Part shown: one piece after another, positions 24,529-24,606 of the stretch
How the letters are laid out: each line of letters starts with the position of its first letter
Numbering within the stretch: the first letter of the stretch is position 1
Sequence record: PZ445456.1
DNA length: 39,315 bases
Source: a phage
Reading direction: 5' to 3' (one strand)
The notes under the pieces: generated by a model
What the model was told of the DNA's origin: nothing
The model's input: only the letters and a program-made list of their open reading frames with translations
The model's database searches: none
Program-made: the position numbers and the translations under genes

Positions 24529-24551
24529 TAATACGACTCACTATTGGGAGA
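24529..24551 (+). promoter_or_regulatory. Phage RNAP promoter (phi10 position)
   Basis: TAATACGACTCACTATTGGGAGA, with predicted +1 at G24546. Confidence 0.92.
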
Positions 24552-24606
24552 CACATCCAGATTGAGTGAGGTCTGGTCTGAAGGTTCGAGTCCTTCGTGT
24601 TTCCTT
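24546..24606 (+). ncRNA. tRNA-like three-way-junction element (no D arm) at the 5' end of the phi10 transcript
   Basis: Hand fold. Outer stem 24547-24554 (GGAGACAC) pairs with 24597-24604 (GTGTTTCC), 8 bp including one G-U. Hairpin CCAGA(24557-61)/TCTGG(24572-76) has a 10-nt loop. The T-arm GAAGG-TTCGAGT-CCTTC (24580-24596) is perfect and contains the canonical GGTTCGAGTCC signature. It is not a canonical tRNA. Confidence 0.45.

Follow-up and report, generated by a model that had tools for sequence, protein, structure and literature searches.

A conserved, predicted tRNA-like RNA fold at the 5' end of late transcripts in T7-group phages

A 39,315-nucleotide (nt) stretch of phage DNA (sequence record PZ445456.1, here called the window) carries on its + strand, at positions 24546-24605, a predicted RNA element that opens the transcript of the phi10 promoter, whose first gene encodes the major capsid protein. 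By sequence comparison, the element belongs to a conserved family of cis-acting RNAs, which we named the phi9-leader tRNA-core mimic and which makes up the first ~56-62 nt of strong late transcripts of the phage RNA polymerase in T7-group phages. The element is not a tRNA gene and it is in no Rfam family; the alignments indicate that its structure is under selection. An earlier note on this DNA had placed a tRNA-like three-way junction in the first ~60 nt of the phi10 transcript. This junction proved to be real and conserved, and the coordinates, stems and loop sizes given for it were all correct on direct reading of the sequence. The window genome is T7-like, of the Berlinvirus type, and its phi10 region is identical to that of Escherichia phage P483.

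The element is not peculiar to phi10; its home is the leader of gene 9 (phi9). There it was found at +1 in about 550 phage records from five Studiervirinae genera, including T7, T3 and the K11/KP32-type Klebsiella phages. K11-type copies (loop type A, see below) accounted for ~280 records, and T7/T3-type copies (type B or C) for ~285, among them T3, phiYeO3-12, phiA1122 and 13a. In ~250 Klebsiella Przondovirus genomes, a 48-nt insert with 96-100% identity lies right after the K11-type promoter, upstream of the scaffold gene 9. Further homologues at the phi9 position were found in Teseptimavirus EG1, Berlinvirus NJ2 and Przondovirus K5, as well as in Ningirsuvirus Ninurta, JA10, Sibilus and pEp_SNUABM_12; the metagenomic phage L159 has one at phi9 behind a different promoter. 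The usual placement is directly after the promoter and upstream of gene 9, and only P483, JSS1, CECAV_058 and this window have the element at phi10. The copy in T7 (NC_001604, 21865-21920) starts at the annotated phi9 +1, and the RefSeq record annotates nothing there. The comparison with the T7 phi10 leader drawn in the earlier note was correct as stated; the true T7 counterpart, however, is the phi9 leader.

Family members were collected with two covariance models, R1, built from the K11-type, EG1, NJ2, K5, Ninurta-type and L159 copies, and R2, a later family model. Diverged copies in T3-like and PP74-like phages were found with R1, and the copy of T7 itself by a loop-based scan. Copies outside the R1 training set (T7, T3-type, PP74-type, SRT7 and Klebsiella T7-like) scored 34-35 bits, with E ~1e-6. 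Window positions 24546-24605, a sequence included in the training alignments, matched both models over their full length, with 88.4 bits for R1 and 66.7 bits for R2. All R2 matches scored between 52 and 72 bits, which argues that the T7/T3 and K11-type elements are not convergent. A loose promoter-plus-T-loop scan returned mostly real tRNAs and chance matches, and the only new members it gave were Ninurta and JA10. Several candidates were rejected: locus L152 had no stems, L233 (15.6 bits) had no outer stem and a T-stem of only 3 base pairs (bp), and matches to CCAGA...TCTGG plus a T-arm in large phages were tRNAs, either ordinary or with an 8-nt loop. A type-A pattern requiring both loop sequences was matched in none of 185,579 bacterial and archaeal genomes (one for each species). 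A BLAST search with the element in 5,426 E. coli genomes also gave no match, in a database so large that short matches cannot meet the E-value limit. In the literature we found no description of a tRNA-like phi9 or phi10 leader, older subscription papers on T7 being outside the searchable text, and the family is apparently a new, undescribed group of tRNA-like cis elements.

The cross-phage alignments showed stems that are conserved and covarying in relatives. Among 12 type-A variants, 97.8% of the alignment cells were paired and 6 of 19 pairs had changed on both sides, a result reached by none of 500 shuffles. A hand-registered alignment of all types (15 variants) was 99% paired, with both-side changes at 16/20 pairs (0/500 shuffles), and the covariance-model alignment of 34 hits, 25 of them distinct, was 97.6% paired, with such changes at 18/20 pairs (0/500 shuffles). 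When the 25-sequence alignment was slid out of register, pairing was only 39-56%. Compensatory changes affected all nine pairs of the outer helix, whose length (7, 8 or 9 bp) varies with the two strands changing in step. The stem of hairpin 1 covaried at 5/5 pairs (CCAGA/UCUGG, CCGGA/UCCGG, GAUGA/UCAUC, UCAUC/GAUGA, ACGGC/GCCGU and ACUGG/CCAGU), and the T-stem at three of five, its first pair being G-C, C-G, U-A or A-U and another A-U, U-A or G-C. Since G·U pairs are tolerated, the selected molecule is the + strand RNA and not the DNA.

For the window copy, the three-way junction was both the minimum free energy (MFE) structure and the centroid in RNAfold, at -24.5 kcal/mol and with 59% of the ensemble. 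It was more stable than most shuffled sequences (z = -2.71), only 3 of 200 shuffles being as stable. The same junction was the MFE structure in nine of ten diverse family variants. The linker after the outer stem has two nucleotides in type-A copies (AU, AC or AA) and 0-1 nt in those of the T7/T3 type, and the linker between hairpin 1 and the T-arm differs among copies (UCA, UCU, CAA, CU, CA or CUA). T7 and SRT7 have a T-stem of only 4 bp.

Both hairpin loops are conserved while the stems change, and the core of the hairpin-1 loop, UGAR/AUGAG, is kept. Three loop types were distinguished. Type A combines the hairpin-1 loop UUGARUGAGG with the T-loop UUCGAGU (K11-type, EG1, NJ2, Ninurta, L159 and window copies), type B combines UUUGAAAUGAGC with UUGGAGU (T7, T3-type and PP74-type), and type C combines UUUGAAAUGAGU with UUAGAGU (SRT7 and P1723). 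The T-loop is invariant apart from position 56; that of the window has equivalents of U54, U55, C56, G57 and A58. The last loop base of hairpin 1 was complementary to T-loop base 56 in all 25 distinct sequences (G-C in 12, C-G in 12, U-A in one) and in 101/101 copies (G-C 68, C-G 32, U-A 1), and a conserved G precedes it, like G18 of tRNA. This gives moderate support to a predicted pair between the two bases, resembling the G19-C56 elbow pair of tRNA, which is plausible by position and not through statistics alone. The earlier note had read the element as D-arm-less, with hairpin 1 in the role of the anticodon arm. Because the loop of hairpin 1 is conserved, its stem covaries and its last base is complementary to T-loop base 56, we read this hairpin as an analogue of the D-arm, and 'anticodon-arm-less' is the better description. 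With the predicted elbow pair, the element would correspond to a tRNA reduced to its acceptor/T/D core, the anticodon arm being absent.

Tools made for tRNAs and known RNA families did not recognize the element. ARAGORN called no tRNA genes in the window or in five element-carrying loci. The best match in the tRNA clan (Rfam CL00001) was tRNA-Sec, with 20.8 bits against a gathering score of 47 and with 35 model positions, covering the D and anticodon arms, deleted. For mascRNA-menRNA (RF01684), only the outer stem and the T-arm aligned, giving 15.4 bits against a gathering score of 42.5 (E = 0.61 in a 111-nt search). No match in the Rfam scans, run both by gathering score and by E-value, reached a gathering score. 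The element has two internal hairpins in place of the cloverleaf's four arms, and the first of them has a conserved loop of 10-12 nt, without an anticodon-loop pattern. The canonical T-arm claimed for it is present, with a 5-bp stem, a UUCRANY loop and the outer stem stacked directly on it without a linker; the 18-nt T-arm is letter-identical to the T-arms of annotated phage tRNA-Asn and tRNA-Pro genes. There is no free discriminator/CCA 3' end, and the outer stem continues into UUUGAGUG and the rest of the leader. As in a 5' stabiliser hairpin, GGGAGA pairs with a downstream pyrimidine run, flush with +1. The window copy has the +1 position of the family, but its gene is 10 instead of 9. Three other ideas were dropped: an AlaRS-type G3·U70 identity, which is present in T7 but not conserved and lacks a free 3' end; a relation to integrase attachment sites, the phages being without integrase; and a coding role, for which there were only mechanical minus-strand open reading frames. 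There are two copies of the motif GGTTCRANYCC in the window, where 0.25 would be expected. The second T-loop-like string, GGTTCAAACCC at 38243-38253, has no flanking stems and no model match, and is probably there by chance.

The 23-nt promoter consensus of the window has 10 matches in it, against 0 expected, and from the consensus promoter G24546 should be the +1 of the phi10 transcript. The window copy is 100% identical over +1 to +57 to the phi9 copy of the Klebsiella phage KpV767, whereas the promoters (T7-like versus K11-like) and the downstream flanks differ. The phi10 copy in the window is thus probably a recent transfer from the phi9 leader of a Klebsiella phage. At its own phi9 (promoter and leader 23536-23574, leader 23553-23574), the window has a plain 5' hairpin, GGGAGAGAC-AAUAC-GUCCUCCC, without the element. 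Every GGGAGA-type promoter in the window yields a flush 5' hairpin.

The element had been described as an elaboration of a simple 5' hairpin, and a plain hairpin does stand at the same place in T7 phi10 and in most Berlinviruses, where GGGAGAGACAUUACGUUCUCCC opens phi10 (Berlin, A7, PhiV-1 and Kvp1). The Ningirsuviruses W2B and DchS19 have GGGAAUAC-AUAAC-GUGUUCCC where Ninurta has the two-hairpin insert, with identical flanks on both sides, and therefore the module sits in the loop of a generic 5' hairpin, is easily exchanged or lost, and is horizontally mobile. The phi10 5' hairpins of KpV767 (L009, 2561-2598) and fPS-9 (L008) share a different structured insert, GCCGAUGCA, and those of Sarma103 (L003) and TVB03 (L005) have another long insert in common. 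Late-promoter leaders seem to host several exchangeable 5' cassettes. Between the element and the AUG lie about 28-33 nt at phi9 but 87 nt in the window; the sole positional invariant of the element is the +1 of a late promoter, which makes a role at the 5' end the most likely one.

In E. coli, 5'-terminal stem-loops shield mRNAs from RppH- and RNase E-dependent decay, as in the ompA and T7 phi10 leaders, and RNAs placed inside a tRNA scaffold are unusually stable. We infer, with a confidence that is about even, that the element is a 5'-end protective tRNA-core mimic, a reinforced version of the generic 5' stabiliser hairpin. The flush, paired 5'-triphosphate end would deny a single-stranded entry to RppH and to the 5' sensor of RNase E. 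A loop-loop lock mediated by the T-loop would pack the AU-rich loop into a compact tRNA-like body. To the host, this body may resemble a finished tRNA core, and it would be left alone or be bound by readers of the tRNA elbow. In this way the element would protect the late messages that are most abundant, those of genes 9 and 10.

Several observations weigh against a protective tRNA-core mimic. In the T7 copy the MFE structure is another fold, and the family structure lies 1.9 kcal/mol higher. The stacked outer and T helices measure 12 bp in T7, NJ2, Tarrare and SRT7 and 13-14 bp in the T3-type, K11-type and window copies, and thus do not keep the constant 12 bp of tRNA. Covariance models of tRNA give the element background-to-weak scores. 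The three states of the 56-pair follow three clades, which amounts to ~2 independent events, and a mutual-information scan for tertiary pairs was dominated by clade structure, with other clade-linked columns scoring equally. In many close relatives a plain hairpin stands in for the element (at phi10 in Berlin, A7 and PhiV-1, at phi9 in W2B, DchS19 and the window itself), so the tRNA-like part is not needed for baseline protection. Simple stabilisation alone also leaves the strict conservation of both loops unexplained, which gives real room to other explanations.

A bolder reading can be put forward, though we consider it doubtful. T7-group phages, T7 included, would start their most abundant late mRNAs with a genuine mimic of the tRNA elbow, an acceptor/T/D core held by a 19:56-like pair. 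The tRNA machinery of the host would read it, candidates being modification enzymes, the ribosome, a defence directed at tRNAs, or RNase P working on read-through RNA. More than a stable hairpin, the element would then represent a new kind of 5' cap for the mRNAs of bacterial viruses, tRNA-shaped, acting in cis and horizontally mobile.

Among the rival explanations, tRNA-style punctuation survives best, although we think it unlikely. In transcripts that read through from upstream late promoters, the element lies internally; RNase P of the host would recognize its acceptor/T stack and elbow there and cut between -1 and +1, with RNase E or RNase Z maybe cutting 3' of the stem. This would leave the same protected 5' end as initiation does, and uncouple the gene 9 or 10 mRNA from the upstream RNA. 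The element has the features by which bacterial RNase P recognizes its substrates, namely acceptor and T stems in one coaxial helix, a canonical T-loop and an elbow pair that can stack and may vary in identity, and the helix starts exactly at +1. The gene 9 stop codon (24524-24526) abuts the phi10 promoter with no terminator in between, the stack has 12 bp in T7, NJ2, Tarrare and SRT7, and phage RNAs processed by RNase P are known, e.g. the C4 RNA of P1/P7. However, an enzyme measuring 12 bp would cut within the longer helices of the T3-type, K11-type and window copies, base -1 can extend the helix in several copies (A-U, columns 1 and 62), and no RCCA follows the stem. T7 is not known to make any late RNA species that depends on RNase P, and relatives manage without the element.

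The element could also act as a decoy or sponge, titrating a host tRNA-binding factor (a defence nuclease, a toxin or a modification enzyme) by its abundance late in infection, on the mRNA or as a clipped ~60-nt RNA. It evolves like an accessory module, being deeply conserved with covariation and yet gained or lost between near-identical genomes (Ninurta versus W2B, with 100% identical flanks, and P483 versus A7); it has moved between genera and promoters, and it is placed behind the strongest late promoters. We regard a decoy as quite unlikely, as the anticodon arm, the part that known anticodon nucleases read, is missing, there is no free 3' CCA end, and late expression is ill-suited against early-acting defences.

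Very unlikely, in our judgement, is a translational operator or enhancer, in which the fold would bind a protein (scaffold, capsid or a host tRNA-binding protein) or dock the ribosome as a standby site. The phi9 element ends within reach of a start-bound 30S subunit, the sequence conservation of both loops is what a binding surface would lead one to expect, and the thrS leader is a precedent for tRNA mimicry as an operator. In the window, however, the element lies 87 nt upstream of the AUG and ahead of another gene, while gene 9 has a plain hairpin in its leader; there is also no known candidate for the binding protein. That the element has no function as RNA, and is a decayed tRNA fragment, a chance hairpin cluster or a DNA-level element, is scarcely credible: its T-arm is identical to real tRNA T-arms and it is dispensable in relatives, but covariation has kept three helices across five genera, which essentially excludes a relic, the G·U pairs show the RNA strand to be under selection, the two-loop pattern of type A was unmatched in the bacterial and archaeal genomes, and the +1 position is fixed.

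T7, from which the standard expression system comes, is one of the most thoroughly studied viruses, and its gene-9 mRNA appears to begin with a conserved tRNA-like fold of 56 nt. If this fold is read by tRNA enzymes or defences of the host, it would be a new way for phages to exploit tRNA mimicry, and it would also explain the frequent swapping of late-promoter leaders between phages. For practical use, the element could be a compact natural 5' module for stabilising or tagging RNA in T7-driven expression. It is also a clean model for the folding of three-way junctions mediated by a T-loop, and natural plus and minus variants exist for testing.

The positions of the element and its neighbours in the window are listed in Table 1. 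The gene-10 leader is 147 nt long (24546-24692; ATG at 24693), compared with 63 nt for the phi10 leader of T7 (22904-22966), in line with the earlier estimate of ~147 nt, far beyond T7.

Table 1 Features of the phi10 region in the window.
Feature	Position	Strand	Basis or remark
phi10 promoter of the phage RNA polymerase, TAATACGACTCACTATT, -17 to -1	24529-24545	+	Exact copy of the 23-nt consensus of the window
Outer acceptor-like stem, 5' strand	24546-24554	+	MFE fold; first base is +1, which makes the 5' end flush and paired
Junction linker AU, 2 nt, in the place of tRNA nucleotides 8-9	24555-24556	+	Unpaired in the fold
Hairpin 1, CCAGA/UCUGG with 10-nt loop UUGAGUGAGG	24557-24576 (stem 24557-24561/24572-24576, loop 24562-24571)	+	
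Final loop base G of hairpin 1, proposed tRNA G19-like partner of C24587	24571	+	Complementarity across copies
Linker UCU, 3 nt, from hairpin 1 to T-arm	24577-24579	+	Unpaired in the fold
T-arm, GAAGG (24580-24584), UUCGAGU (24585-24591), CCUUC (24592-24596)	24580-24596	+	
Outer stem, 3' strand	24597-24605	+	Joins the T-stem without linker, giving a coaxial acceptor/T-like stack
Remaining gene-10 leader: ~45-nt conserved block (24606-24655), AU-rich spacer, Shine-Dalgarno AAGGAG (24680-24685)	24606-24692	+	
Gene 10, major capsid protein, first gene on the element-carrying transcript	24693-25736	+	Open reading frame list; annotation of matching records

Most of the length of the long leader is accounted for by the ~45-nt block downstream of the element, UGAGUGAUACACAAUGAGAACCAACUCGUUUCAAGUAGUACCUCAC (24606-24655). 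This block is nearly invariant in Berlinvirus, Przondovirus, Helsettvirus and a Rahnella phage, with or without the element. Because relatives without the element have it too in the cross-genus alignment, it is not part of the module. Its alignment fold predicted only a small 6-bp hairpin (AAUGAG/CUCGUU), with zero covariation. Elsewhere in the window, at 8440-8466, the transcript of another consensus promoter opens with a flush hairpin that holds a run of nine Gs (GGGAGACCCUUGGGGGGGGGUUUCCCC). In unrelated IMG/VR contigs of 21-55 kb (L054, L056, L057, L058, L060, L063, L064, L065, L067 and L068), ARAGORN called 'tRNA-???' genes with a non-standard anticodon, of four bases (cccc or ctcc) in nine loci and of two (cc) in L058. 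These could be tRNAs of the quadruplet-decoding or frameshift-suppressor type.

Among known systems, tRNA itself shares with the element a 5-bp T-stem ending in a G-C pair, a 7-nt loop with equivalents of U54, U55, N56, R57 and A58, and a T-stem that runs into the outer stem without a linker; in type A, a 2-nt linker follows the outer stem. In both, a second hairpin has a loop base complementary to position 56 and a conserved G before it, like G18 and G19. In contrast to tRNA, the element has no anticodon arm, no consensus of the variable region or D-loop (A14, R15, A21), no discriminator and no CCA. Its 3' side continues into mRNA, its outer stem of 7-9 bp is set by the GGGAGA start of the promoter, and its '19' base is the last of the loop and adjoins the stem. 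With the 5' stabiliser hairpins of the T7 group (T7 phi10) and ompA-type stem-loops, the element shares the flush pairing of the +1 GGGAGA with UCUCCC or UUUCCC. The T7-group hairpins have the identical place in transcripts and are interchangeable with the element in close relatives. Stabiliser hairpins, however, need no conserved two-hairpin insert with tRNA-like loops, which the element has.

The element resembles a tRNA-core mimic set on a 5' stabiliser hairpin of the T7 type. Conceptually nearest to it are mimics of tRNA without an anticodon arm, the tRNA-like domain of tmRNA and the tRNA-like module of YrlA, a Y-RNA-like RNA of bacteria and phages; tRNA-like modules on long RNAs also come close. 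In these, as in the element, an acceptor-like stem, a T-arm and a D-loop-like partner make up an elbow, and the anticodon arm is replaced or missing. They differ in being stand-alone, processed small RNAs with free ends, and with a CCA in tmRNA, whereas the element is the 5' end of an mRNA. The tmRNA and YrlA families in Rfam gave no match to the element at E <= 10. The 3' tRNA-like structures of plant viruses, the MALAT1 mascRNA and RNase P-sensitive mRNAs (PMC4565877) are tRNA-like elements inside longer viral or cellular RNAs, and like the element they are tRNA-shaped modules that a long RNA carries in cis and that tRNA enzymes could potentially read. They are 3' or internal and eukaryotic, unlike the 5' element, and we found no described example in the literature of a tRNA-like module at the 5' end of a phage mRNA.

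The salivarius-1 motif (RF03030), whose crystal structure (9G4Q) is cited in a preprint that assigns it no function (bioRxiv 10.64898/2025.12.30.696949), shares with the element the three-way-junction layout, similar linkers (AU and UCA), a CCA..UGG hairpin and a UUGAG loop. A scan of genomes with its consensus pattern gave 120 chance matches in unrelated taxa and none in Streptococcus, and was uninformative. The window copy (at E <= 10) and all T7/T3-type copies gave no match to the salivarius-1 model. The phi9 copy of the Enterobacter phage NJ2 (L051, 1499-1556) matched the whole model with 27.8 bits (E = 4e-4 in a 171-nt search; gathering score 50), and this match may be a hint that three-way junctions with a T-loop form a wider class.

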